Below are positions 49,964 through 64,000 of a stretch of DNA of 64,000 nt, in pieces. The stretch lies in the NCBI GenBank assembly GCA_963666285.1, contig OY762711.1; one strand, written 5' to 3'. The position numbers were made by a program, and so were the translations under genes. The stretch's first letter is position 1. Every line of letters begins with the position of its first letter. Below the pieces are notes generated by a model, which saw only the letters and a list, made by a program, of their open reading frames with translations, had not been told where the DNA came from and did not search any database. Source of the DNA: Sedimentisphaerales bacterium (GTDB lineage: Bacteria > Planctomycetota > Phycisphaerae > Sedimentisphaerales > SM23-30).

Positions 49964-51328
49964 TTATTCTTCCGGTTTTTCCGGTAATTTACTAAGCCTT
50001 CTTTCCCGGTTATCATTTTCGAGAACTTTCTGGAACCCGTCCTTTGACATATATTCAGAATGGCCATCCATAAAACCAACAACATAATACGTATTACAAT
50101 TACTTTCAAATCGTTCATAGACACAAATCATTTCAGATCTGGCTTTGTCATTCAGGTCTTTTCCCCTGAAAATATAGCCGGTACCAATATTTTTTAAGGG
50201 GCTGATCAAGCCTTTGGCAGGATAATCAGCTGTGGTAATCAATTCTTCCAAAGACTCAGGCATTTTTCCTTTATGATCATTCATGTGGATACAACAAGCA
50301 GTAGCAATCCCTTTAACATTCAGCATGCTTATTTGAATATCAGCCTGGTGTTTGGCACTACTATAACAATCCATCATAAAAGGAGCGAGGATTTCCCTGA
50401 TCTGAATATTGTTTATGGAGCCTACCAGCCTGCTCCCGGAGCATTCAGGTTTAATGTTCTTTAGCATAGAGTTGATATCAGGATATTTTTCCTTGATCCA
50501 TGGCTCTTCTTTTAACGCGTAGTTTTGTAATAATTCAACCAAAACAATAGCCCGCTGAGCAGCTTCAACACTTTGAGATTGTGCCGTATAGGAAAGATTC
50601 AGTTTCTTGTTCAGATTCAGGCCAAGAGCTGCCCACTGAACCGACCTAGTAAAATCAGCCCCGGTAGCAATATCGTCAGCTTCCCGAAAAGGATAAAAAG
50701 TTTCCTCGATAACACGTTTAAGACTGACAGAAGGTGTAAATAATAACCTGACACCATATTCCTTAACAGTCTCTTCTGCATTTGACACGTCCTGCCGAAC
50801 ACCATCCGTTTTACCTTTGAGTCTCTCAATCGTATCAGATCTTCCAATAAGCAGGGTATCATCAATATCAACCATAGTATCAAGACTAATAAATGGAACA
50901 TTCTTCAATTCGGTAAGATTCAGCATCTGGACAAGTCCTTTTAATGAAGGACAGTCTTTGCCTGGTTCATGAGGAACAACCAGGTAAAATGCAGGTAAAT
51001 CATGCATACTCATAACAAAATTAACATTCTTAATCCCGTCATTTTTGAACTGGGCGAGATAGCCATCGACAACAATCTTAAACGAGTTGATTTTAGCAAT
51101 AGCCTGATCTGCATCTGCCTGATCAAGATACTCTGCTATATAGTACATGAATTCATCAGTTACAGCCTGGGTATCTACACTATTAAGGTCTACACTTAGT
51201 ATTGCTGCCGTTTCATCTTCGAGCCATGGTTCTAATTGCTCATAGCCTGTTGCAGCAGCTAATGAGTTGCAAAGAAAAACTGAAATCATGGCCAAAATTA
51301 CGACATATGCGTTAAATGTTTTATACAT
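49964..51328 (-). CDS. Secreted protein with C-terminal DUF1559/H-X9-DG-like (pilin-related) segment
   Basis: Signal peptide; SMLNVKGIATACCIHMNDHKGKMP and VVGFMDGHSE resemble the planctomycete DUF1559 N- and C-motifs. Confidence 0.6.
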   Translation of the reverse strand: MYKTFNAYVVILAMISVFLCNSLAAATGYEQLEPWLEDETAAILSVDLNSVDTQAVTDEFMYYIAEYLDQADADQAIAKINSFKIVVDGYLAQFKNDGIKNVNFVMSMHDLPAFYLVVPHEPGKDCPSLKGLVQMLNLTELKNVPFISLDTMVDIDDTLLIGRSDTIERLKGKTDGVRQDVSNAEETVKEYGVRLLFTPSVSLKRVIEETFYPFREADDIATGADFTRSVQWAALGLNLNKKLNLSYTAQSQSVEAAQRAIVLVELLQNYALKEEPWIKEKYPDINSMLKNIKPECSGSRLVGSINNIQIREILAPFMMDCYSSAKHQADIQISMLNVKGIATACCIHMNDHKGKMPESLEELITTADYPAKGLISPLKNIGTGYIFRGKDLNDKARSEMICVYERFESNCNTYYVVGFMDGHSEYMSKDGFQKVLENDNRERRLSKLPEKPEE

Positions 51329-51351
51329 TTCTATTACTCCTTATAAAAAGT

Positions 51352-52770
51352 CTATTTGTTCAGTTTAATGCGATAGCCAATGAAATTTGCATTGTCATCC
51401 GGGTCCTGAACATCCAGAATTGCCGTATCTCCTTCCAGACGATAGATGAATTCTTCACCAGTGAATGCATTTTCAGGTAACGGTACATTATTTATATCAG
51501 AAAGCCGTTTTGGCAACTGGTCATATTCGGCAACATACATACGTATTGCTTCGACACATTGCATAGCCTGATCGCGAACCTGGAATCTTGCCACAAGAAG
51601 TTTGCATCTATTCAAAGCGGGAAGAAATTCATAGAATATATTTGGGACAGTCATGTAATGACGTTTCCGGTCTAATTCTTTGCTATATTTTTTCATTCTA
51701 TCGCCTATCTGATGATAAGGCACAAAAAGATATTTGAACATATCATCTCGCAAAGGAAGGTATTGCTTCCATTGAGCCAGCATAACTACCTGGGCAGCAG
51801 GCATCATCTCTACCCTGCGAGAGTCGTAGCCATTTGCCAGAAGATAATTTTTGCCCGACACATATCCTGCGGCAACTATCGCAGCTAAAGGGATGTCATC
51901 ATCTACCATCTGCAGCATTTCGCTGAACTTTTTGTTAGCACGCTCAACGGAGAGTATATCAGTTTCCAGATCATCAATACCATCCTTTACCCACAAGCTC
52001 AATTCATATTCAAATGCCTGATGCATATCAATAAATGGTTGAGGCATTACTTTCAGAGCCCAATAGAGATTCGGACTGTCAGGTTGAGATGCGATGTCTT
52101 CGATTATCCTGTAATTTATTGTCGATATTGCAATAGCGACAAGGTCCTGAATGAGAGTTTTGCCCTTGCTTATATCTTCTGCCAGAGCAAAATTATAGCT
52201 GATCATCTCCAAAGCACCATCATAATCGCCGTCAGCTACTTTCACCCGAGCCTCTAAAGCAATAAGTTTAGCAATATTCTTGTAATCAGACAAGCTCGGC
52301 AGCAACATATTTATGCCGTCTTCTATCGGATCCTGCCAGTCGCAGTCGGTTCGATATGCAGCATGTTTTAAGAAGCTAACAGATGAAACGTTGAAAAACT
52401 TCCTGGCATGATCAAGCTGTTTATTCTTAAATTCATAAAATGGCAACTGGACCAATTCCATACAGTCTAATTCACCCTCCTTAAAATTATGATATTCATC
52501 CAGATCGGCTGGAATCATAGCGTTTAACTTATTCCAGTCAACTGCGGCATTGCCGGGAATAAGGTCGATAATAGGAGGCAACAGCCTGTACTGCAGTGCC
52601 GGGACAGGCTCAGAAGCACCGGAAATGGAAATTTCTACATACTTATCAGGTTCTTTTTCACTATCAGTTTTGTCGGTGGCAATAATTGCCTGTCCTGACA
52701 CAGTACTGCCGGCATACATTGCCAAAACCAGCCATAGTAATATTTGTTTGATAATTTTATTCATCATCAT
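51352..52770 (-). CDS. Secreted helical hypothetical protein (ECF-operon associated)
   Basis: Signal peptide; PALQYRLLP..GNAA, CDWQ, EAIRMY..LP..L..VPLP.NAFTGEEFIY; start at one of the MMM codons. Confidence 0.65.
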   Translation of the reverse strand: MMMNKIIKQILLWLVLAMYAGSTVSGQAIIATDKTDSEKEPDKYVEISISGASEPVPALQYRLLPPIIDLIPGNAAVDWNKLNAMIPADLDEYHNFKEGELDCMELVQLPFYEFKNKQLDHARKFFNVSSVSFLKHAAYRTDCDWQDPIEDGINMLLPSLSDYKNIAKLIALEARVKVADGDYDGALEMISYNFALAEDISKGKTLIQDLVAIAISTINYRIIEDIASQPDSPNLYWALKVMPQPFIDMHQAFEYELSLWVKDGIDDLETDILSVERANKKFSEMLQMVDDDIPLAAIVAAGYVSGKNYLLANGYDSRRVEMMPAAQVVMLAQWKQYLPLRDDMFKYLFVPYHQIGDRMKKYSKELDRKRHYMTVPNIFYEFLPALNRCKLLVARFQVRDQAMQCVEAIRMYVAEYDQLPKRLSDINNVPLPENAFTGEEFIYRLEGDTAILDVQDPDDNANFIGYRIKLNK

Positions 52771-52820
52771 TAATCCCTCATAATTTTCACATAAACAGAC
52801 CAAAAGTCAGTTTGTGTAAT

Positions 52821-53255
52821 TTAACTGTTTAGCATATCTTTAAGAGAATACACCTTGCCATTTTTACCAGTAGATTTCGGTAAAACCTCCAAGCCATGGT
52901 CAAATACCTGTCTGCGCAGCAACAGGTACGAGTTTTCATCCAGCTCATTTACTGGACCTGAAACAACATTAGTTTCAAGGTTTGTCTTGTCAAATTCAGA
53001 ATCTGCATTATCCTGTACAACAAGCTTAATATTACCGAATGACATTTCTGGTACAGTCTGAGACCGGTTATTTGCCATATTCACAAAAGCTAGCACCATA
53101 ACCAAAAGTATCATACAGCCGTTGGAAACCTGCCAGATCCTGGTATTTTTGCGACCCTGCCTGAAGCCAGCTTCATAAGCCACCGCTGCGGGATCGAGCC
53201 CCGGTTCAACTGGAGCAAGGTTCATAAGTTTATTTTCAAATTCATTTATATTCAT
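52821..53255 (-). CDS. Probable membrane anti-sigma factor
   Basis: Directly downstream of ECF sigma; FE..L..L.P N-terminus, AYEAG, single TM. Confidence 0.6.
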   Translation of the reverse strand: MNINEFENKLMNLAPVEPGLDPAAVAYEAGFRQGRKNTRIWQVSNGCMILLVMVLAFVNMANNRSQTVPEMSFGNIKLVVQDNADSEFDKTNLETNVVSGPVNELDENSYLLLRRQVFDHGLEVLPKSTGKNGKVYSLKDMLNS

Positions 53256-53261
53256 GGCAAT

Positions 53262-53744
53262 TCACTCCAATCTATCTTTAAGAGCTTTAATAGCCCTGTT
53301 ATATCTATTGTGCAGGGTTGAGGTTGCTATGCCGGTTATTTCTGAAATTTGCTCAAAGCCCATCTGGCCCCAAAGCCTAAGGGTAACAACTTCGCGAAGT
53401 TCGGTATCAAGTTCAAATAAAGCTTTTTGGACTATTTCGGCGTCCAGCTGATTATCGGTATCCGGCTGAAACCATAATTTACCGTCAACTTTTAGCTTTT
53501 GGACCGCTTTATCTCTGACCTGCTTTTTTCGCAGACGACTGATACAATCGTTTCTAACCGTACGATACAGCCATGCCTTAATATTAACCGGCATATTTTT
53601 CTGGCTGATCAGCTTTACAAACGCTTCCTGAACAACATCTTCGGCATAATTTCCGAGCCATTGCCGGGCGTACAGACACAACCCGGCTGAATATTCGGTA
53701 AAATATTGCTGAATATGTGATGTCCTGGAGGGCAGTCTGTCCAT
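53262..53744 (-). CDS. ECF RNA polymerase sigma factor
   Basis: AEDVVQEAF, AWLYRTVRN (region 2); REVVTLRLW..MGFEQISE (region 4). Confidence 0.9.
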   Translation of the reverse strand: MDRLPSRTSHIQQYFTEYSAGLCLYARQWLGNYAEDVVQEAFVKLISQKNMPVNIKAWLYRTVRNDCISRLRKKQVRDKAVQKLKVDGKLWFQPDTDNQLDAEIVQKALFELDTELREVVTLRLWGQMGFEQISEITGIATSTLHNRYNRAIKALKDRLE

Positions 53745-53890: not shown

Positions 53891-55813
53891 TTATTTCAAA
53901 AATCTAGTATTACCCGAGCGGCGTGTGACACCGATTTTGTCCATATAATCAAGTATCGGCAAGGCATATTTGCGAGTTGTATCGAGCAGATATTTCATCT
54001 TAACGCTTTCGAGCCTACCCTGCCCTTCCCCGTTGACATGATCGATAATTCTGCGTTTGGCCTCTTCAATTGCTTCACTATGGAAATAAACCTTCCGTTC
54101 AACCTCAATAATTATTTTCTGCTCGGTGAGAATAGCAATGGTTTTATCATATTCACTTTGAGATGCATTAACCATGCTGCGGATGTCATCCGGATTTGGC
54201 GGAGAGAACAGGTTGTCTTTATAGACAGCTTCAACTTTATCCAGTAAAGCCTGCTGGGCCGGGTCATACTGTTCCTGGTGAGACGTCAGGGCAAACAGTT
54301 GATTTTTCAATAGCAGTTTACCTTCACTAATAGCAAGTTTTACAACTGCATCAAAAAGCGTTTTCTCCAGATCGCTCTGCTGCAGCAGAAGATCACGCTC
54401 CATGCCCAGTCGATCAGGCATTTGTTTGTGAAAGACCTCTAGTTTGCCATAAATATACTCAAGAACATCGTTATACACCTGAGCATGAAGATATTGTTCG
54501 TTAGCAACCTGGATAACAGTATTGCTTTCGACAAACCTGGCCAGAATATTCTTTACAGAATCGGGTTCCAGCTTGGTCCGCAATGCGATCTGCCTGATTG
54601 ACAAAACAGACCATGGATCATCTTTCAGGCAATATTCGATAAAAGACCTATTCTCGCATACTGCATTTGCCCAGCATTTTATTGCATCGATTGAAGATAT
54701 CCTGCTGCGTTTTAGTTTTTTCGGCAGTGGTTCTATGACAGTACCACCACCAACGGTCTGGACCGGACCGGTAGAACGCAAGATAAACCTGTCATTGGGA
54801 CCGGCAACTATTGGCTGATCAGCTAATAGCTGTACAAATACTTCCTGACCGGCAAGAGCGACAGTGTCTTCTAAAAGATATATCTTGGCGGTTACCTCAC
54901 TGGTACCTGTGTGAAACTTCATACGTTTGCCATGTTTGACAACAAGACCATCCAAATTAAGAATCTTTAGAGAACATAAAAACCACTCAGAAGGTTCAAA
55001 ATATTCACCTTTTGTAAGTACATTACCACGCTCGATATCGTTGAAATCCAGCTGCGGCAGGTTTAAGGCGGCACACTGGCCGGAACGGACAGTATCATCA
55101 TCACGACCATAGACCTGGATAGCCTTGATACGGCTTTTTGTGCCTTTTGGCAAAAGAGTAACCTCATCGCCAACTCTGGCAGAACCACTTACAGGGATGC
55201 CGCTAATAACATTACCAAAGCCTTTAACCGAGAAGAATTTTTCAACCGGCTGGCGAAATACGCCTTCTGTGCTTTTGGGCTCAATACTCTTTATCAGGGA
55301 TTTGAGAGAATCATAAAAGAAATCAAAGCCATCGCCCGTGATATTTGACATCGGGCAGATATCTGCACCCGCCAGAAAGGTATCTTTGAGATAATCTTTG
55401 AGTTCGGATATCACCTGCTCAACTCTTTCCGGAGAGACAATATCGGTTTTGGTAAGAGCTACCATGCCATGTTTGACACCAAGCAGGGTAAGAATATTGA
55501 GATGTTCCCGCGTCTGGGGCATTATACTATCATCAGCAGCAACAACAAAGATAACACCATCAATACCGGAAGCTCCGGCTACCATGGTCTTAATAAAATT
55601 TTCATGGCCGGGAACATCCACTATACCAACTTCAAGATCGCCTAGCCGACAAGGGGCAAAGCCAAGCTCTATGCTCATACCGCGTTCTTTTTCCTGCTTG
55701 AGCCGGTCGGTTTCGCAACCGGTAAGAAGCCTGATAAGTGCAGTTTTGCCGTGGTCAATATGACCGGCAGTACCTAGCGTTATATTTATTTGAGATGCCT
55801 GTTTATCGTTCAT
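53891..55813 (-). CDS. selB: Selenocysteine-specific elongation factor SelB
   Basis: GTAGHIDHGKT, EKERGMSIELGF, DVPGHENF, TKTD; C-terminal winged helices ending TTRKYALPILDYMD..GVTRR. Confidence 0.97.
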   Translation of the reverse strand: MNDKQASQINITLGTAGHIDHGKTALIRLLTGCETDRLKQEKERGMSIELGFAPCRLGDLEVGIVDVPGHENFIKTMVAGASGIDGVIFVVAADDSIMPQTREHLNILTLLGVKHGMVALTKTDIVSPERVEQVISELKDYLKDTFLAGADICPMSNITGDGFDFFYDSLKSLIKSIEPKSTEGVFRQPVEKFFSVKGFGNVISGIPVSGSARVGDEVTLLPKGTKSRIKAIQVYGRDDDTVRSGQCAALNLPQLDFNDIERGNVLTKGEYFEPSEWFLCSLKILNLDGLVVKHGKRMKFHTGTSEVTAKIYLLEDTVALAGQEVFVQLLADQPIVAGPNDRFILRSTGPVQTVGGGTVIEPLPKKLKRSRISSIDAIKCWANAVCENRSFIEYCLKDDPWSVLSIRQIALRTKLEPDSVKNILARFVESNTVIQVANEQYLHAQVYNDVLEYIYGKLEVFHKQMPDRLGMERDLLLQQSDLEKTLFDAVVKLAISEGKLLLKNQLFALTSHQEQYDPAQQALLDKVEAVYKDNLFSPPNPDDIRSMVNASQSEYDKTIAILTEQKIIIEVERKVYFHSEAIEEAKRRIIDHVNGEGQGRLESVKMKYLLDTTRKYALPILDYMDKIGVTRRSGNTRFLK

Positions 55814-55823
55814 TCTTATTGTT

Positions 55824-57224
55824 TTAACCCAAAATTTCAGTTAAAGCTTCAACTACTATCTTTGCATCCCCCTCCAGCAAAGACCTGGGATCCAGCAGTA
55901 TTTTATCTTCCTGGATACGGGTAAATATCGGAGTACTATAATGCCTGAGTCTGTTTGCAATTATAACACTACTAATCTTATTACTAAATATTGTCACTAA
56001 CCTGGTTTTGAGGTTCTGAGTCGGAAGAGAGCCGCTACCTGTTTGAGAAAATCCATCGACGCTCTCAATTTCAGCATCTAACTTTGCCTTACGCAGTTTT
56101 GATGCAATTTTTGCCGCTTCGCTTTTGATAGAATCGTACGACCGCAGCATCATCCGCAAGGTTGGAACCTGCTGTAGTGCCTTTTCTTCATTCATAAACA
56201 ACCTCAAAGTTGCTTCCAGGGCAGCAAGAGTCATTTTATCTACTCTAACTATGCGGGCAAACTGGTTCTTTTTGACCTTTTTAACCAGATCAGCCCTGCC
56301 GAGAATAATCCCGGCCTGGGAAGCACCGATAAGCTTGTCACCACTGGAACAGAGAATATCGGCACCATCGGCAATAGATTCGGCAAGAGTTGGCTCTTTG
56401 GCAAAACCATATTTTGAGAAATCAACCAGCGAACCTGCACCAACATCATCAAAAGCAATAAGGCCATTGGCATGAGCCAGATCAACAATCGGTTTAAGCG
56501 GTACTTCACTGCTGAATCCCTGGATTTTGTAATTGCTCGGATGAACTCGCAGAATAGCGGCGGTTTCTTCTGAAATAGCATTTTCATAATCACGCAAATG
56601 GGTTTTATTGGTAGTACCAACTTCGACCAGTTTTGCCCCGCTGAACGCCATTACATCCGGCAATCTGAAAGAACCGCCAATTTCGACAAGCTGACCGCGT
56701 GAAACTATAACCTCTTTGCCCTCGGCGATGGTATTTAATACCAGTGCAGTTGCTGCGGCATTGTTATTTACAATCGTAGCCGCTTCGGCACCGGTAAGAA
56801 TAGAAAACATCTTTTCTATATGGTTGTCGCGACTACTGCGTTTTCCATCTTCGATACCAAGCTGCAGCAGTGAATAGCCGCTGAGTTCGCTTTTTATCTG
56901 ATCTACAGCCGCGTCAGGCAATACCGCCCTGCCAAGCCCGGTATGAAGTACTATCCCGGCAGCATTAATAACCTTGCGATAGAAAGGACTTACCAGTGAA
57001 CCAAGTTCAGATTGAATATCGCCTACAACAGCATCTCTAATATCAAGCACATCCTTTGAGCAGCTGCCGGCTAATATCTCCTTGCGTTTTTCTTCAATAA
57101 CAGAACGACAAACCTTCGTTAATATTGCCTGAGAAAACGATTCCTTGTAAGAATCCGGCAATAGCTGACAGACAGAATCCACCGAAGGTATCTGCCTTAA
57201 CATTTCCTGCTGAGAAGCATCCAT
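55824..57224 (-). CDS. selA: L-seryl-tRNA(Sec) selenium transferase
   Basis: VINAAGIVLHTGLGRA, NNNAAA, SRGQLVEIGGSFR, EVGTTNKTH, VHPSNY, SGDKLIG (PLP Lys). Confidence 0.97.
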   Translation of the reverse strand: MDASQQEMLRQIPSVDSVCQLLPDSYKESFSQAILTKVCRSVIEEKRKEILAGSCSKDVLDIRDAVVGDIQSELGSLVSPFYRKVINAAGIVLHTGLGRAVLPDAAVDQIKSELSGYSLLQLGIEDGKRSSRDNHIEKMFSILTGAEAATIVNNNAAATALVLNTIAEGKEVIVSRGQLVEIGGSFRLPDVMAFSGAKLVEVGTTNKTHLRDYENAISEETAAILRVHPSNYKIQGFSSEVPLKPIVDLAHANGLIAFDDVGAGSLVDFSKYGFAKEPTLAESIADGADILCSSGDKLIGASQAGIILGRADLVKKVKKNQFARIVRVDKMTLAALEATLRLFMNEEKALQQVPTLRMMLRSYDSIKSEAAKIASKLRKAKLDAEIESVDGFSQTGSGSLPTQNLKTRLVTIFSNKISSVIIANRLRHYSTPIFTRIQEDKILLDPRSLLEGDAKIVVEALTEILG

Positions 57225-57248: not shown

Positions 57249-57785
57249 TTATTTGATTTCAACCCATTCTTCTTTCTTTTCAACTTTGAACGGGCCTAGA
57301 TCAGCATCTAAAACAACTTTTACTTTGCCGCTGAAATTATTAGGAGCTCGCCACGAACTCCGGCATGTGCCGCCTCAGCCAAAGGTAAAATCGCCAGAAC
57401 CGAGCAGTTTTTCCTGTTCATCATAAATCTTATATGATGGAGCATTCTGCATACTACCATTTCTTTCTGCTGCAGGTAAATAGGTTTCGCCGGCATTTCC
57501 CTCTAAAACAGCCCCCAGGTATAAAGTTCGACCGCTGACGGTAACATCTGCCCTGGCAACCAGCGGCTCACCAGGTTTTGAATCATTTTTCCAAGGGGAA
57601 GTTGATATTGAAAGCTCCCATATATTGCCCTGATCATCTTTTACAGATAGCCCAGAGTCTGAGATAACTTTAGCTGACGGATTCATAAACATAAAAAAGA
57701 GGAAAAGACCAATAATTACAAAACCAACAATAAAAATGCCTTTAGGCCCGGATTTATTCATTTCTTCAAAACTTTTTTCTGTCAT
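57249..57785 (-). CDS. Candidate membrane-anchored selenoprotein (178 aa, Sec137 in FG-U-GGTC)
   Basis: ATG 57785 after GGAGAG; TM GIFIVGFVIIGLFLFFMFM; TGA 57375-57377 followed by 41 open codons GGTCRSSWRAPNNFSGKVKVVLDADLGPFKVEKKEEWVEIK to TAA 57249-57251; SECIS-like hairpin; heads selAB. Confidence 0.85.
57343..57361 (-). promoter_or_regulatory. SECIS-like hairpin 1
   Basis: GGAGUUCG-UGG-CGAGCUCC, 8-bp stem starting 13 nt after the UGA. Confidence 0.8.
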
Positions 57786-58133
57786 AGAACTCTCCAGTGT
57801 TAATTTGACGCAAAACAATACTAAATATCAAAACGACAAGGCTATACTATAACTAATAAATGCACTAATTTGTATCAAAAACCTTGAAAAATGATTTCAT
57901 CTGTTATAAATCTGCTTATATTCTCATAAGAAAAGTAGTAATATAAATTTAATTAGTCAAACCACACAACCAAACTACCATAACATCCTATATTAACAAA
58001 GGTTACAGTTTAACAACCTTTTAAGTGCCTTTGTTTTATATACCGAAATATCTTGCAATTATTTTGGGATTATGGCATGATATATGAAGTTATTGTCTCG
58101 GCATATTAGAAATTGCTTTTTACAGGAAATTGA

Positions 58134-58271
58134 ATGAACAGCTATCAATATATACGATTAATGCACTCCGGAAAACAGGAGTATGGCTGAGTTGTTTCCT
58201 GTCGATACTCGTGTCGAGTGTCAGAAAGCAATTCTATCTTTAAATGTTTCATACAGCTTCATTTTATTTAA
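58134..58271 (+). CDS. Candidate Sec-containing leader peptide (45 aa, MNSYQYIRLMHSGKQEYG-U-VVSCRYSCRVSESNSIFKCFIQLHFI); not in ORF track
   Basis: AGGA upstream of ATG 58134 (alternative ATG 58161); TGA 58188-58190; TAA 58269-58271; motif homologous to the 57249-57785 protein; SECIS-like hairpin at the same spacing. Confidence 0.65.
58204..58222 (+). promoter_or_regulatory. SECIS-like hairpin 2
   Basis: GAUACUCG-UGU-CGAGUGUC, 8-bp stem starting 13 nt after UGA 58188-58190; same UCG-UGN-CGA apex as hairpin 1. Confidence 0.72.
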
Positions 58272-58325
58272 TAGAATCGTTAATGACACCAATAATATTG
58301 GTCAAAACCAAATAAAGAGCATATC

Positions 58326-58361
58326 GGCAGACTGGAATTTATCGTCTGCCTTTTCTATTTT
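58326..58361 (+). terminator. Terminator-like hairpin in the leader of the ABC-selD-selC operon
   Basis: GGCAGAC-11 nt-GTCTGCC followed by TTTTCTATTTT, ending about 30 nt before the binding-protein start. Confidence 0.55.
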
Positions 58362-58389
58362 AAATGGGAACATTGCCGAAAGGGAAAAT

Positions 58390-59520
58390 ATGAAAAATCT
58401 TCTACTTGCACTAATCGTTATAACAGCAGCGATAACCGGCTGCGAAAAAAAGGAAACCACATCCAGCGATAATACCACAAATCAAACACCATCAAAAGCA
58501 GTAACATTAAAAGTTGGGCATGTCGGCCACGACCACCACCTGGCATTGTATATGGCATGTGATTACGCTGATGAACTAAGTATAAATGGCGTCAGACTGG
58601 AGAAAGTTGAGGACATGAAATATTATACACTCTATAAAAACGAGACCAAACTTGCAGACGTGGAAATTGTAAAAGTTGGCGGCGGAGCCAAGATGCCTAC
58701 CGCACTGGCACAGGATGTCATAGATATTGGATTTGGCGGAGTTGCACCGGTTATTGCAGCAGTTGATAAAAACGCACCTGTAAAATTAATCAGCCCACTA
58801 CACTCCAAGGGTGATATGTTTGTGATGAAAACCGACTCCGAGGTAAACAATTGGGACGATTTTATTAAAATGGCAAAAGAAACCAAAACACCTATCAGAA
58901 TAGGATACAAAAGTCCATCAGCAGTCGCCAAGTTAATCTTTGAAGATGCTCTAAGTAATGCAGGGATCTCTTTTGGACAGGACCCTGCCCAGACCGATAT
59001 TAATGTGTTAATGGTTAATACCAAAGGCGGCGGCAAACTGAATGTTGCCCTGGAAAGCAATATTATTGATGGTTATGCAGGAAATAACCCATTCCCTGCT
59101 ATTGCCGTTAATAAGAAAATGGGAAAAGTAATTGCCGACCTGGAAGACCTTCCGCCTGGAAACTTCAAGAACCATCCATGCTGCTGCATTGCAGCTAACG
59201 ATAAGGCCCTGGCGGAAAAAACTGAAGCTATCGAGGCAATGCTGACACTATTCAAAAAGGCAACCGATTTAATCAACAACGACCTGAATAAATCAGTTGC
59301 AGCTGCGACGCACTGGATTGGTACATCTGAAGAAGTCGAAAAGATGAGTATTCCGACCAGCGGATACAGTATGCAGGTCACTGAGGATTGGCAGGCGACC
59401 ATGGATAAATGGTTCGAGGCTATGAAGGCTCTTGACACCTATCAAGGTGAACTAAAGGACATACCTGCTAAACAGGCCTGTGATAAAGTATACGATATGT
59501 CAATTTTGAAAAAGATATAA
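58390..59520 (+). CDS. ABC transporter substrate-binding lipoprotein (NitT/TauT family) with GHDHH and HPCCC motifs
   Basis: Lipobox AAITGC from ATG 58390 after AGGGA; LKVGHVGHDHHLAL; IDIGFGGVAP; HPCCCI. Confidence 0.88.
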   Translation: MKNLLLALIVITAAITGCEKKETTSSDNTTNQTPSKAVTLKVGHVGHDHHLALYMACDYADELSINGVRLEKVEDMKYYTLYKNETKLADVEIVKVGGGAKMPTALAQDVIDIGFGGVAPVIAAVDKNAPVKLISPLHSKGDMFVMKTDSEVNNWDDFIKMAKETKTPIRIGYKSPSAVAKLIFEDALSNAGISFGQDPAQTDINVLMVNTKGGGKLNVALESNIIDGYAGNNPFPAIAVNKKMGKVIADLEDLPPGNFKNHPCCCIAANDKALAEKTEAIEAMLTLFKKATDLINNDLNKSVAAATHWIGTSEEVEKMSIPTSGYSMQVTEDWQATMDKWFEAMKALDTYQGELKDIPAKQACDKVYDMSILKKI

Positions 59521-59533
59521 ACAGCTATAAATA

Positions 59534-60373
59534 ATGAACAATCCAAAGATAAGAAAATCAAATATCATCGGCTGGCTGATTATGCCAATAGTGCTGCTGG
59601 GAATATGGCAATTACTAGCGGTTAAACTTAACCAGCCATGGCTGATACCTGCACCGGTAAAGATAATAGAACAGTTGACCCACCCACTGCGAATTCATTT
59701 TTCGTCCGGGTCACTTTTTAGCAATACAATTATCAGCCTTCTGAGAGTATTTATCGGTTTTGCGCTAGCAGCTATTATCGGAGTTTCAGCAGGATTACTG
59801 CTGGGTTCGATCCGGCCGCTTAGACAATGGTTTGAACCAACAATAGAGATTATCAGGCCGTTATGCCCAATTGCCTGGCTGCCGTTTGCGATTGCGGTAT
59901 TCAAACTGAACACTCTGCCTAATCTTTTTGGTATCAGGTTTACTCATACCATACTGGACCAGGTACAGCTGGGTATGATATTTGTAATTTTTATCGGCGG
60001 ATTCTTTCCGATCTTCACTAACACTATGGATGGAGTAATAGGAGTGAGAAAGAATTTTGTCAGGCTGGCCCAGACACTTGGCGCAACCAGAGTCCAGGTA
60101 TTCCTGCAAATATATCTACCTTCTGCTATGCCTCAAATTCTTACCGGATTGCGACAGGGACTCGGCTTGTGCTGGTTTGTTATTATTGCAGCCGAAATGA
60201 TGGTTGGCTCTGATACAGGCATAGGCTATTTACTGATGTATGCCGCAGATAACTCGGCAATGGATATCGTGATATCATGCATGATTATCATAGGTGTGAT
60301 CGGCGCTGTAATGAGTACTGCTATGCGTATACTGATACACAAAAAGGTTGCATGGAAAGGAAAAGAGTTTTAA
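59534..60373 (+). CDS. ABC transporter permease (NitT/TauT, SsuC-like)
   Basis: SLLRVFIGF, RPLCPIAWLP, AQTLGA (EAA region), IAAEMM..GIGYL. Confidence 0.92.
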   Translation: MNNPKIRKSNIIGWLIMPIVLLGIWQLLAVKLNQPWLIPAPVKIIEQLTHPLRIHFSSGSLFSNTIISLLRVFIGFALAAIIGVSAGLLLGSIRPLRQWFEPTIEIIRPLCPIAWLPFAIAVFKLNTLPNLFGIRFTHTILDQVQLGMIFVIFIGGFFPIFTNTMDGVIGVRKNFVRLAQTLGATRVQVFLQIYLPSAMPQILTGLRQGLGLCWFVIIAAEMMVGSDTGIGYLLMYAADNSAMDIVISCMIIIGVIGAVMSTAMRILIHKKVAWKGKEF

Positions 60374-61149
60374 TGCAAACAGAACTACAACATCCTAATA
60401 CATGCACAAGTGTTATACCTCTAATCAGTTTTACAGGTATCAGTAAAGCATTCACCTCCGATTCCGGCCGAATAGTACAGGCTTTGACAGATGTATCATT
60501 TTCGGTGCGACCTGGTGAATTTATTACAATTGTTGGTGCAACCGGTTCCGGTAAAACCACTTTACTGAACCTGATAGCCCGTCTGGAACATTCAGATGCA
60601 GGAATAATAGAATACAACAACTCACTGGATATAAAAAATGAAATATCTTATGTATTCCAGCATTATACCCTGCTGCCCTGGTTAAACATTCAGAAAAACA
60701 TCTCTTTGGGACTGAAGCTGCGTAAAATACCTCAAAAACAACGAATTAAAACCGCATGCAGGTTAATGAAAGATACCGGGCTAAAAGGTTTTGAGCGGGC
60801 GTACCCACATGAGCTTTCCGGTGGAATGAGACAGCGTGCCGCAATTGCCCAGGCCCTGGCAACAGAACCAAAACTACTGCTTATGGACGAACCATTCGGG
60901 TCACTTGATGATGGCACACGAAGCGACTTACAGCAGATGTTAATAAATATCCACCAGCAAAGCAAAACTACTATTCTATTTGTTACTCATAACATTGACG
61001 AAGCAATATTGCTGGCTGACAGGATAATTGTTTTAAGCAAATCGCCTGGAAATATATTAGAAGATATTGAAATTAACCTGGCAAAACCAAGAAACAGAAA
61101 CAATAACGATTTTACTAAACTTTTTTTGCAGATACGGAATTTATTATGA
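60373..61149 (+). CDS. ABC transporter ATP-binding protein (NitT/TauT, SsuB-like)
   Basis: GATGSGKTT, VFQHYTLLPW, YPHELSGGMRQR, LLMDEPF, FVTHNIDEA; TAATG coupling to the permease. Confidence 0.95.
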   Translation: MQTELQHPNTCTSVIPLISFTGISKAFTSDSGRIVQALTDVSFSVRPGEFITIVGATGSGKTTLLNLIARLEHSDAGIIEYNNSLDIKNEISYVFQHYTLLPWLNIQKNISLGLKLRKIPQKQRIKTACRLMKDTGLKGFERAYPHELSGGMRQRAAIAQALATEPKLLLMDEPFGSLDDGTRSDLQQMLINIHQQSKTTILFVTHNIDEAILLADRIIVLSKSPGNILEDIEINLAKPRNRNNNDFTKLFLQIRNLL

Positions 61150-62777
61150 CAATTAATAAAGAAAGACGTAAACGCGTAATGCAGCGTTCTATCAAACTGG
61201 GACATTGTGTATGCGACCCTAAACAACCCTGTCCTTGTGAGATATTCAAGGAAAAAAACATATGCTTATGTGCAGGTGAGAGACTGGAGGAACCAACTGG
61301 AGAAGTTCGCTTAACCCAAATGGTGGAAAAGGCAGGATGCGGCTCCAAAATTGACCAGGCTTTCCTCAAGGAAGTGCTTGGCGATTTGAAAATGCCGGAA
61401 GACACTAACGTTCTAGTTGGCGTACCTGCCGGTGATGATGCCGGGGTATACGATATGGGCAATGGAACCTGCCTGGTTCAAACAGTTGATGTATTTACCC
61501 CAACTGTTGATGATCCATATATGTTCGGCCAGATTGCAGCAGCAAATTCTGTTAGTGATGTATATGCTATGGGCGGCATACCCAAAACCGCCCTTTCGAT
61601 AATCGGCTTTCCGGTACGCAAAGTCCCTGATAGAGTAATGAAAGAGATCATCCGAGGTGGAATTGATAAAATGGCAGAAGCCGGTGTGTCTATTATTGGC
61701 GGACATAGTATCAACGACCCGGAAATAAAAGCAGGCTATGCAGTAACTGGAACAATAGATAAAGAAAAAGTAATTACTAATGATGGCATAAAGGTTGACG
61801 ATGTATTCATCCTTACTAAAGCATTAGGGACAGGAATAATCTCATTTGCATCTCAAATAGGACGAGCGTCTAAAAGTGCAATGGAAGCTGCCGCAAAGTC
61901 AATGGCAACCCTGAATAAAACAGCATGCGAGTTAATGGTGAAATACAATGCCCATGCCGCCAGTGATGTTACCGGCTTTAGCTTGATAGGCCATTTATCA
62001 GAAATGACAAGACGTAGCGGGGTAGATGTCGAGATAACCTGGGATAAGCTGCCCTGGCTGCCGGAGGCACTTGATTATGCCGCTCAAGGAATATATCCCG
62101 GGGCAATCGAACGAAACAAGGAATCATGTGGTCATACCATTATTGTCGATGATAATGTGAGCGAAGCAATGGCTGATATCTGTTTTGACGCTCAGACTTC
62201 CGGCGGCATGCTAATTGCAGCAGCACCAGATAAAGCTGAAAAACTATTAGGTGAACTGAAAGCATCTGGACTGGAATATGCTGCCATCATTGGTAGGACC
62301 ATTTCAAGAGGCTCAGGAAAAATTAACATTGTAACGGACCGGACAAAATCATTTACAGCTTCTAATGCCGCTCAAAACATACAGGAAACTTCAGAACCTG
62401 ACCCGGAGCCATGTTGCGGGACAGGAGCAGCATCTGCAATAAAAGCACAAACAGCTAATGCAGAAAGCTGTTGTTGCGGTCCAGAACCGGATGGGCAAGA
62501 TAACAATAATGAACCAATCAAAGCTATCGAAACCAGTTTTTCCAGCTTTATGAGTAAGGTAAACAGACCCGGCGGACTTGACGCATTCACCAAGCAAGCG
62601 GTGAACCTGGCATTGTCTATCCATTCGAAATGTAAACCTTGTCTCAAAACACATATTGCAAAAGCACGTAAAATGGGCTATACTGAATCTGAGATTGACG
62701 AAGCAGCATGGATGGCAATCGCTTTTGGCGGTTCACCGGCCATGATGTTTTATAAAGAAGTGAAAGCAGAGGTATAA
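61146..62777 (+). CDS. selD: Selenide, water dikinase (Cys form) fused to an N-terminal CxC/CPC/CxC domain and a C-terminal AhpD/CMD domain
   Basis: RLTQ..AGCGSK (Cys65, TGC 61338-61340), DDAGV, TVDVF, NSVSDVYAMGG, GGHS, DVTGFSLIGH, DAQTSGGML; ATGA overlap with the ATPase gene. Confidence 0.95.
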   Translation: MTINKERRKRVMQRSIKLGHCVCDPKQPCPCEIFKEKNICLCAGERLEEPTGEVRLTQMVEKAGCGSKIDQAFLKEVLGDLKMPEDTNVLVGVPAGDDAGVYDMGNGTCLVQTVDVFTPTVDDPYMFGQIAAANSVSDVYAMGGIPKTALSIIGFPVRKVPDRVMKEIIRGGIDKMAEAGVSIIGGHSINDPEIKAGYAVTGTIDKEKVITNDGIKVDDVFILTKALGTGIISFASQIGRASKSAMEAAAKSMATLNKTACELMVKYNAHAASDVTGFSLIGHLSEMTRRSGVDVEITWDKLPWLPEALDYAAQGIYPGAIERNKESCGHTIIVDDNVSEAMADICFDAQTSGGMLIAAAPDKAEKLLGELKASGLEYAAIIGRTISRGSGKINIVTDRTKSFTASNAAQNIQETSEPDPEPCCGTGAASAIKAQTANAESCCCGPEPDGQDNNNEPIKAIETSFSSFMSKVNRPGGLDAFTKQAVNLALSIHSKCKPCLKTHIAKARKMGYTESEIDEAAWMAIAFGGSPAMMFYKEVKAEV

Positions 62778-62793: not shown

Positions 62794-62890
62794 GGAGGTG
62801 ACAGGTAACTGGTGTTGCTCCTGGTCTTCAAAACCAGTGTGGGGCGGTAAGCCCGTCCCGGGTGGGTTCGATTCCCATTCGCCTCCGCCA
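62794..62890 (+). tRNA. selC: tRNA-Sec (anticodon UCA)
   Basis: 8-bp acceptor GGAGGTGA/TCGCCTCC + GCCA; 6-bp D stem with TGGT loop; CTGGT-CTTCAAA-ACCAG; long variable arm GGGGCGG/CCGTCCC; GTGGG-TTCGATT-CCCAT. Confidence 0.97.
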
Positions 62891-63014: not shown

Positions 63015-64000
63015 ATGGCTAAAAAAACTGGCAAAAAAGCAAACTATATCATCTTTGGAAACCAAGAAGTTAAAACTGTTTTCGATGGAAAAGAAATTGG
63101 AGTAAGCCTTGATAGAACCACTCAATCTCACTATACAATGCTTCCGCAAAAATCAGGAAGAACCAAACGAAAATGGTTAGGAAAGCATACAGGTAAAGCC
63201 GTTGCAAGTTTCTGGGCTTTAGTAGAAGAGCTCAATAACAAACAAACACCTACAACAACCATAATCGCTCAACAAGAAGACATATCCCCCCTGTATGAAC
63301 CAACGGATAAAATGTCTATGGATGAAGTTGTCAGGTCCAATCAAATTAAGTTAAGAAAGACTGGCAAAGTAATACTTACAACAAAGGAGTCAGAGCATAT
63401 ACAATGGCTATTCAAGGAACTCCAAAATCCCAAGGAATTGGCTCGTAAAACTGGCATCGAAGAGTTTACAGAGTTTGGAAAACTATTAGCCAAAGATACC
63501 AACATACCTCTTAAAGACCTTCTTAAAAACTATCTTAATAAAAAGAAAACCGTTTCAAAAACAACCAGACAACAAAGCAAAACATTTTTTAATAATTTCA
63601 TTAAAGCTATTGACTGCAAGTATGTCGATGAAATCACCCTGAAAGACATACACAACTATGAAGACTATATATACTCAAAAGGATTAGCCGCGAAAAGCAT
63701 CATTAACCAAATATGCACTATATCTACTATCATAAATTACAACACAGGAAGATATCACTGCCCTCATCTATTACAAGTGCATAGTTGGCTCCAGAAAGGA
63801 ATAGACAAACCTACGGAAGATAAACTTTACAATCCAAAATTGATTTCAGTTGTTGATTTTATGGCTTTATACGAAGTGGCTCCATTCAAATGGAAGCTGT
63901 TTCTATTACTTGGTCTGAATTGTGCAATGTATCCAATTGACATTTCCAACTTTCAACTAAAACACCTCAATATCGAAGATGGAACGGTTGCATTTAGACG
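63015..64000 (+). CDS. Tyrosine recombinase/integrase-like protein (partial, runs off window end; not in ORF track)
   Basis: Open from ATG 63015 to the end (328 codons); SAM-like core VDEITLKDIHNYEDYI..KGLAAKSIINQI; box-I-like FLLLGLNCAMYPIDISNF..LNIEDG; starts 124 nt after the tRNA. Confidence 0.75.
   Translation, partial: MAKKTGKKANYIIFGNQEVKTVFDGKEIGVSLDRTTQSHYTMLPQKSGRTKRKWLGKHTGKAVASFWALVEELNNKQTPTTTIIAQQEDISPLYEPTDKMSMDEVVRSNQIKLRKTGKVILTTKESEHIQWLFKELQNPKELARKTGIEEFTEFGKLLAKDTNIPLKDLLKNYLNKKKTVSKTTRQQSKTFFNNFIKAIDCKYVDEITLKDIHNYEDYIYSKGLAAKSIINQICTISTIINYNTGRYHCPHLLQVHSWLQKGIDKPTEDKLYNPKLISVVDFMALYEVAPFKWKLFLLLGLNCAMYPIDISNFQLKHLNIEDGTVAFR

Follow-up and report, generated by a model that had tools for sequence, protein, structure and literature searches.

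Bacterial selenocysteine (Sec) insertion is specified by a SECIS hairpin located ~11-13 nt after an in-frame UGA, with a G in its apical loop, in a genome that carries selA, selB, selC and selD. Thanbichler and Bock are said to have described in 2002 the translational repression of E. coli selAB via a SECIS-like RNA in the 5' leader, with no UGA, leader ORF or terminator being involved. In classical attenuation, viz., of the trp operon of E. coli and the his operon of Salmonella, a leader ORF contains control codons for the sensed metabolite, and the competition between an antiterminator and a terminator results in readthrough when the charged tRNA is scarce (bioRxiv 10.1101/834739). Among the mycobacterial loci covered in the same source, the codons of polycysteine leaderless sORFs act as sensors for a chalcogen amino acid whose supply operons they control; these systems use several Cys codons, and as described there act by translational Shine-Dalgarno (SD) control at the studied locus with no SECIS (bioRxiv 10.1101/834739). 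In fdhF(Sec) of Treponema primitia, the decoding of UGA as Sec is coupled to transcription elongation around the SECIS, with low selenium truncating the selenoprotein's own mRNA, and an excerpted account of this system describes no separate terminator or antiterminator (PMC3892789). According to the same account, attenuation by a rare amino acid had been engineered and was unreported in nature before the differently built T. primitia case (PMC3892789).

Here we describe an element from a 64,000-nt stretch of contig OY762711.1 of a Sedimentisphaerales bacterium (GCA_963666285.1; hereafter the window), which is a real, conserved regulatory element and probably a variant not seen before within leader-peptide attenuation. 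A search of the full-text literature, with most subscription journals and supplements outside its reach, returned no natural Sec-codon attenuator. Unlike in the trp and his systems, the control codon is a single recoded stop, at which release-factor termination can replace stalling; the switch strand is a SECIS, thereby involving a dedicated elongation factor; the antiterminator is long-range (~120-150 nt); and in many genomes the leader coincides with the 3'-terminal part of a gene for a full-length protein. It shares with the reported E. coli selAB operator a SECIS-type hairpin 5' of the Sec machinery that would sense SelB-Sec-tRNA in negative feedback; however, the hairpin here lies inside an ORF, after an in-frame UGA and ~170 nt from the operon RBS, and is accompanied by a conserved terminator/antiterminator pair. 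On the first three of these grounds the hairpin does not qualify as a selAB-type translational operator. In contrast to T. primitia, the genes to be controlled here are those for selenium supply, located downstream behind a terminator of their own, and the polarity is predicted to be the opposite. We propose, with a probability of roughly three in four, that it is a Sec-tRNA-sensing transcription attenuator with a translated leader that is ON at low selenium; that a Sec-linked switch of some kind exists here we consider very probable.

The selenium island and its leader

The element is part of a selenium island. Its minus strand encodes selB (53891-55813; TIGR00475), selA (55824-57224; TIGR00474) and, directly upstream of selA, a full-length selenoprotein (P0001; 57249-57785); the plus strand carries the leader, followed by an ABC transporter, selD and tRNA-Sec. 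The transporter comprises an NMT1/SsuA-like substrate-binding lipoprotein (58390-59520; PF13379, with the SsuA and SaoX models below cut-off), a permease (59534-60373) and an ATPase (60373-61149), for which the best NCBIfam models, respectively SaoP and SaoA, are likewise below cut-off. The ATPase stop overlaps the start of selD (61146-62777; TIGR00476 over cut-off), which is followed by selC (62794-62890; ARAGORN). The window SelD is a Cys form with a Cys-rich N-terminal extension and a fused C-terminal CMD/AhpD domain (PF02627). An integrase-like gene (63015-64000; SAM-like domain, weak Pfam matches) starts 125 nt past the tRNA-Sec and suggests a mobile element inserted at selC. On the 3' side of selB (49964-53744, minus strand), a putative ECF sigma/anti-sigma pair was recognized by eye, along with two proteins of 454-483 aa without a Pfam or NCBIfam match.

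The leader ORF (58134-58271) has 45 codons, begins with an ATG at 58134 preceded by an SD-like AGGA (58124-58127; anti-SD duplex -4.3 kcal/mol), and ends in a TAA (58269-58271) followed by a TAG. A weak candidate sigma-70-type promoter (58053-58081; TTGCAA, 17 nt, CATGAT with an upstream TG) agrees with the consensus at 8 of 12 positions and is placed 81 nt before the ATG. Six short leaders that are close relatives have a promoter-like site 81-83 nt ahead of their start; in a promoter scan of the region, such sites occur at chance level (12 against 9.7 +/- 3.2 expected). Codon 19 is a UGA (58188-58190), and the probability of a frame remaining open by chance for 18 codons before and 26 after it is ~0.03 (mononucleotide model, 31% GC). 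The UGA is followed at 13 nt by a SECIS core hairpin (58204-58222) with an 8-bp stem and a UGU loop, which agrees with bacterial SECIS elements in spacing and loop, and is more stable than most shuffled sequences (z -3.1; 2 of 200 equally good).

The leader ORF is a remnant of the TGA-bearing YG-U-GGxCRYSWRVP selenoprotein family, which it matches through its YG-U-xxxCRYS-x-RV segment. The UGA-plus-SECIS motif occurs eight times in the genome, viz., in seven long family genes and the leader, and not at all when the genome is read backwards. The seven long members are P0001 and those at C1 498566, 1429006, 4259769, 4457575, 4460979 and 5361320. Each of the 42 family matches, found in 13 of the 41 genomes searched, has a single in-frame TGA. 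On these sequence grounds the leader UGA is probably a Sec codon, at which Sec would be inserted with SelB bound to the SECIS, with selA, selB, selD and tRNA-Sec being encoded nearby.

The family is apparently unnamed and widespread, with a YG-U-GGxC motif and an all-beta domain that may be C-terminal or internal. It lacks a sequence match in Pfam, NCBIfam or the PDB; against the OS_HP2 selenoprotein model (NF041425), 2 of 29 members gave a match, with a best E of 0.016 that is not over the cut-off, and the 8 matches of that model in this genome all lie outside the family genes. An AlphaFold model of the domain is confidently all-beta (pLDDT 93), and a Foldseek search with it recovered nothing at E<=0.001, with weak Ig-like matches. 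A profile search of 1.84 billion representatives recovered 989 proteins. Judged from the best 150 of these 989, the relatives in databases are almost all annotated as terminating at the UGA: 118 of the 150 end exactly at that position and 32 read through it, 3 of these with a Cys there.

Downstream of the leader stop is an intrinsic terminator (58326-58361) formed by GGCAGAC (58326-58332) and GTCTGCC (58344-58350), i.e., a 7-bp stem with an 11-nt loop, followed by a T-rich tract (58351-58361); its region folds better than most shuffles (z -2.5; 5 of 200 equally good), and a simple terminator scan missed the hairpin because the loop exceeds the 8-nt limit of the scan. The initial annotation, whose positions for the signals from the AGGA to the lipoprotein start all agree with the sequence, had suggested that TCGGCA (58324-58329) might alternatively pair with TGCCGA (58374-58379), and had seen no clear upstream antiterminator. 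The former pairing is predicted at -10.3 kcal/mol; however, its 3' strand lies past the U-tract, just ahead of the lipoprotein ATG (58390), and thus follows the termination site, for which reason we rejected it as the switch. Contrary to the latter statement, an antiterminator does exist: the 5' strand of the SECIS has two complements, namely its own 3' strand and, 120 nt downstream, the 5' arm of the terminator. The antiterminator 5' strand (58199-58210) consists of a toehold and the SECIS 5' arm, with 58199-58207 pairing with 58322-58330, and 58208-58210 with 58317-58319 (-15.4 kcal/mol in total); the 3' strand (58317-58330) shares 58326-58330 with the terminator and thereby covers five of the seven bases of its 5' arm. 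In a transcript ending in the terminator loop, this antiterminator is both the minimum-free-energy (MFE) and the centroid fold (z -2.6; 3 of 200 shuffles). In the antiterminated fold the SECIS 3' arm is predicted to be captured in a scaffold helix between 58218-58223 and 58284-58289, present in the MFE and centroid folds of 58190-58342. Four structural features of a leader-peptide attenuator, namely an ORF with a start and SD, a control codon, a terminator and an exclusive antiterminator, are thus present. No Rfam riboswitch, T-box or leader family was found at the gathering score in eight loci, and 57700-58500 yielded only a chance snoRNA match (E 1.4).

Conservation, covariation and origin of the switch helices

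An initial protein search recovered four proteins, three besides the window's own. Using the binding protein as bait, we obtained 19 matches in 251 genomes of the order, 72 loci from a genome collection and 79 from metagenomes, mostly from Sedimentisphaerales, Phycisphaerae and other Planctomycetota. These amount to 127 distinct loci, of which 43 had too little upstream DNA. Among the 84 left, 48 have a UGA-SECIS site just 5' of the first operon gene, all of them belonging to the 64 loci whose binding protein is at least 50% identical, with none in the 20 below that value. The 16 negatives at or above 50% include one whose element heads a longer operon (G063), one cut by the contig end in which the SECIS and terminator are present, five with a different tiny UGA leader, one with a UGA and hairpin and no start, one with a proximal family gene lacking a terminator (L170), and seven that showed no leader. 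On a short contig, L144 has a terminator, with the UGA and SECIS absent upstream; the partner-plus-terminator half that survives there (about -1110 to -1060 from the binding-protein start) is possibly what is left by a deletion that would silence the operon.

We then compared operon-proximal sites, defined by position only, with paralogues further upstream in the same loci, after dropping non-family sites (L082 at -3753, L120, L207 and L208). A terminator follows 49 of 50 proximal UGA sites as against 3 of 34 distal ones, and a duplex of the SECIS strand overlapping the terminator 5' arm is found in 49 of 50 versus 2 of 34, as is the complete order of UGA, SECIS, stop, SECIS-complement, terminator and U-tract. 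The median duplex is -18.2 kcal/mol in the proximal and -9.9 kcal/mol in the distal sites, and it is better than dinucleotide shuffles (p<=0.05) in 46 of 50 versus 1 of 34. These counts overstate independence, since the loci are kin and were merged only when identical. Many distal copies have an identical SECIS strand; e.g., in G063 two full-length paralogues share the same 12-base SECIS strand and lack a partner, whereas a 22-codon leader that follows them is equipped with both the partner and the terminator. In the window too, no attenuator follows P0001. The distance from the terminator to the next start codon is 28-132 nt, with the window at 39 nt. When a strict DNA pattern in two parts was used, which misses the window itself and other variants, there were six matches in 401 genomes of the class, four of them true elements, with one match in the backwards control; the other two (L214, L215) are unrelated chance matches.

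The antiterminator pairing is in the same register in 56 aligned rows, in which the partner was anchored by similarity to a consensus and not by pairing. Pairing holds in 390 of 392 cells at its seven core positions, although at three of these the partner base is under constraint from the terminator stem as well. Three positions display double changes: L155 and L005 have A-U in place of C-G, L061 and L002 have U-A in place of C-G, and the window and L061 have A-U in place of G-C, the last of these with a change in the SECIS partner too. The toehold pairs in the antiterminator and not in the SECIS, with its position 3 unpaired in the latter in 56 of 56 rows. In a separate 40-row alignment, in which L061 is misaligned, the antiterminator is 91% paired as against 24-50% for slid controls, and the SECIS core is paired in 99.7% of the cells. 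The covariation score of the antiterminator exceeds all 500 shuffles, and 24 of the 500 equal its three doubly changed pairs; the SECIS and terminator, whose stem also covaries, exceed all 500 on four of five measures, with 4 of 500 reaching them on the fifth. These shuffles ignore relatedness and the cells with double changes are few (n=6); with that weight, the compensatory changes in the sequences support the antiterminator pairing. The element therefore displays three mutually exclusive helices, which are conserved, covarying and limited to the family copy that heads the operon. Given that the pairing of the SECIS strand with the terminator is conserved across the relatives, the element is likely to be a switch; the attenuator-like layout seen in the initial annotation is thereby backed at the sequence level by an antiterminator specific to operon-proximal copies.

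The leader is, in many loci, nothing other than the end of a full-length selenoprotein gene on its 3' side, and in 19 it is short. The short leaders have frameshifts, with the +4 Cys lost in 3 and the Trp in 5, and their post-SECIS protein identity is 0.37 as against 0.69 in full-length copies and 0.89 for the SECIS codons. Nevertheless, all 19 have a start in frame with the UGA, several with a good SD, and the frame remains open for 24-46 codons past the UGA, with the stop always 17-50 nt before the partner strand. On a quick tree of 44 binding proteins, in which the window and L061 form long branches with a loose mutual placement, 10 changes between the full and short states are needed, at least four of them forced by well-supported branches; from these sequences, the shortening of the leader is a repeated event. 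The proposal that the leader was recruited from the neighboring selenoprotein family holds for the family but not for the neighbor: its 25-nt SECIS segment differs from P0001 at 11 positions and from 22 full-length operon-proximal copies at 3-7, which rules out direct descent from the divergent gene.

Ribosome position, proposed mechanism and alternatives

The nascent RNA of 50 loci was folded at equilibrium under a 30-nt mask representing the ribosome. The antiterminator has a probability >0.5 in 47 of 50 naked RNAs and in 45 with the ribosomal A site on the UGA; past the UGA this drops to 26 at +1 codon, 4 at +2 and none at +4 and +8, before returning to 15 at +12 and 39-46 further on, with 39 at the leader stop codon. 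In a second set of models, the corresponding numbers are 45 for naked RNA, 49-50 at the UGA and 35 at the stop codon. Because these models lose the antiterminator past the UGA, the switch strand would start at the leading edge of a ribosome waiting there. In the models, the ON state under Sec-tRNA shortage is robust, irrespective of the ribosome being stalled or released. Since a ribosome at the stop codon mostly leaves the antiterminator intact, the OFF state would depend on timing, with a ribosome in transit over the SECIS while the terminator is synthesized, or on a clamp by SelB at that moment. The antiterminated fold is favored over the SECIS by a median of 8.3 kcal/mol (4.5 in the window), and by the model energies 8.3 kcal/mol would be a large gap for SelB to bridge.

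A comparison of folds with the ribosome at the UGA and at the TAA had been suggested for the window, and only the latter gave a uniform answer: with the ribosome on the stop codon the antiterminator probability is 0.00-0.02, and with the ribosome on the UGA it depends on the boundaries, being 0.05, 0.26 and 0.98 for three boundary sets in which the naked RNA has 0.90, 0.97 and 0.12, respectively. In the full-length RNA of the window the terminator is favored by ~5 kcal/mol. We hold the full model lower than the existence of a switch because the window folds vary with the boundaries and a ribosome at the stop codon mostly does not produce the OFF state.

Under the proposed mechanism, at low selenium a ribosome would wait at the UGA or be released there, leaving free the four-base toehold below the SECIS stem, which would invade the nascent terminator arm and allow RNA polymerase to read through into the ABC-selD-selC operon. 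When selenium suffices, SelB-GTP-Sec-tRNA would hold the SECIS and the ribosome would then pass over the toehold and SECIS, so that the antiterminator would come too late and transcription would end near 58351-58361. Selenium uptake, the synthesis of selenophosphate and tRNA-Sec would in this way be under negative feedback, with the leader peptide itself probably being dispensable. We infer transcription, translation and polarity at the locus.

The failure of the stop-codon ribosome to switch off most models could also be accommodated by a translation-independent device of the same polarity, in which SelB-GTP-Sec-tRNA bound to the nascent SECIS would block the antiterminator on its own, leaving the UGA and its frame as leftovers. 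The weak SD of some leader starts (L049, L069) is in line with this, as is the control that E. coli selAB is reported to undergo via a SECIS-like RNA without a codon. Against it, all 19 short leaders keep the UGA at a constant spacing and in the frame of a start codon, and this frame is kept open, with the stop 17-50 nt before the partner, despite frameshifts and deletions; although the site pattern required a UGA, a manual look at the negative loci revealed no UGA-less leader of this SECIS-plus-terminator type. We therefore regard this version as unlikely, although better placed than the alternatives that follow.

The polarity might also be reversed, with the operon being ON when selenium is available: a ribosome stalled at the UGA would hide the toehold, and readthrough and release would free it. 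The antiterminator probabilities of 0.05-0.26 obtained in the window with the ribosome on the UGA and the upstream leader RNA free to fold are of this kind, and in T. primitia fdhF low selenium leads to premature termination near the SECIS (PMC3892789). However, across the loci the antiterminator persists with a ribosome on the UGA in 45-50 of 50 and is lost only beyond it. Moreover, induction of uptake and selD at scarcity fits the logic of attenuators, and in Methanococcus putative transporter transcripts rose upon selenium depletion (PMC11097638). Reversed polarity is hence quite improbable relative to induction at low selenium.

The initial annotation had named a decayed paralogue fragment as its main alternative, under which an ordinary leaky terminator would follow a dying gene and the complementarity would be an inherited accident with no selenium response. 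The decay of the protein is indeed visible, GC-rich terminator arms pair readily with GC-rich strands, and L144 keeps a terminator alone. This alternative is correct for the protein, which decays, but not for the RNA switch, which is retained. Accidental complementarity is contradicted by the partner bases outside the terminator stem, which are conserved and covary with the SECIS, by paralogues that have the same SECIS strand and no partner, and by the at least four shortenings, in each of which the UGA, SECIS, partner and terminator were left in place. Were the terminator constitutive, its position 39 nt 5' of the operon would also allow scant room for a promoter, and we give this explanation very little credence. 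Least probable of all is a functional 45-residue selenopeptide (for selenium storage or redox) whose transcript is ended by the terminator, the operon having its own promoter: although the window peptide keeps the Sec and the +4 Cys and two 9/12 promoter-like sites occur at 58248-58296, the number of such sites is no higher than expected by chance and the two precede the terminator, and beyond the SECIS codons the short leaders have no sequence in common, with even the +4 Cys not being universal among them.

Operons under the element and a second class of leaders

The usual order of the island is selB and selA, divergent, family genes, the attenuator, a porin-like gene (PF13557), the ABC genes, selD and selC, and selA is present in 38 of 45 binding-protein genomes, many of these genomes being incomplete. 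The element heads different operons depending on the genome, usually with selD and selC at the end. Copies found without the ABC bait occur directly 5' of selD (L213), or 5' of genes for a DUF3034 protein or a SAM methyltransferase, behind which come double-cubane reductases, their activase, selD and selC. The latter operon, with DUF3034, a SAM methyltransferase, three double-cubane/HGD-D proteins, a BadF-type activase, selD and selC, was observed at L031 (5482-13365), L032, L037, L038, L039 and L220, and may represent a route recovering selenium from other compounds. One genome (G005) has two attenuated operons (L037, L056). The theme common to these operons is selenium supply.

A second, unrelated tiny leader was found by hand 5' of the same ABC operon, comprising a strong SD, Met, and 7-8 codons ending in Arg and UGA, with a SECIS-like hairpin 11-15 nt past the UGA. 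It occurs in L082 (-1066 to -945 from the binding-protein start), L098, L104 (Victivallales), L109 (Kiritimatiellae) and L192; in L098 a hairpin and U7 lie downstream of the Arg-UGA leader, and L106 and L191 have a UGA and hairpin with an in-frame start that is not clear. A pattern search for this class over 151 genomes returned only L109, the locus from which the pattern was built, and the class thus stays at five hand-found cases.

A broader reading, which we place somewhat short of an even bet, is that this would be the first natural selenocysteine attenuator, in which a SECIS became a three-way transcription switch while still part of a functional selenoprotein gene, at its 3' end, with repeated reduction of that gene to a leader peptide, and with unrelated Arg-Sec leaders of 8-9 codons arising at the same transporter in other PVC lineages. 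Both classes would mark a selenium-starvation regulon, in which the porin and the multi-Cys ABC system form the long-sought dedicated importer of selenium with high affinity, and the methyltransferase and double-cubane genes mobilize selenium from other compounds. If the attenuator acts as proposed, the 21st amino acid would join the metabolites sensed by attenuation, and a recoding signal, the SECIS, would have been reused as a transcription switch. The series from full-length gene to leader is likewise a clear record of a regulatory leader arising from a protein gene.

The element may further serve as a genomic label for selenium-starvation genes. According to a 2026 review (PMC13188914) and a 2024 study (PMC11097638), a transport system that is specific for selenium and of high affinity has yet to be identified in prokaryotes; the candidates that the attenuator names are the ABC system, two porin-like families, the methyltransferase and the double-cubane reductases. 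From its context and from the invariant triple-Cys motif in its sequence, we infer that the ABC system imports selenium. In 11 aligned relatives of the binding protein, this HPCCC motif is invariant, and there is a His-rich GHVGHDHH motif. The nearest described transporter is the SAO system (SaoB/SaoX/SaoP/SaoA), which provides the best NCBIfam models for the window permease and ATPase, likewise has a multi-Cys binding protein, and is tied to double-cubane reductases and selD; its description also reports a tight co-occurrence of double-cubane proteins with selD, and the word 'leader' is absent from its main text (bioRxiv 10.1101/2022.07.06.499078). Unlike SAO, the window subunits lack an internal Sec and score below the respective cut-offs (SaoX 45.5 vs 300, SaoP 141.8 vs 295 and SaoA 236.8 vs 360 bits). 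The HPCCC motif of the window protein recalls the CC motif of SaoX (bioRxiv 10.1101/2022.07.06.499078).
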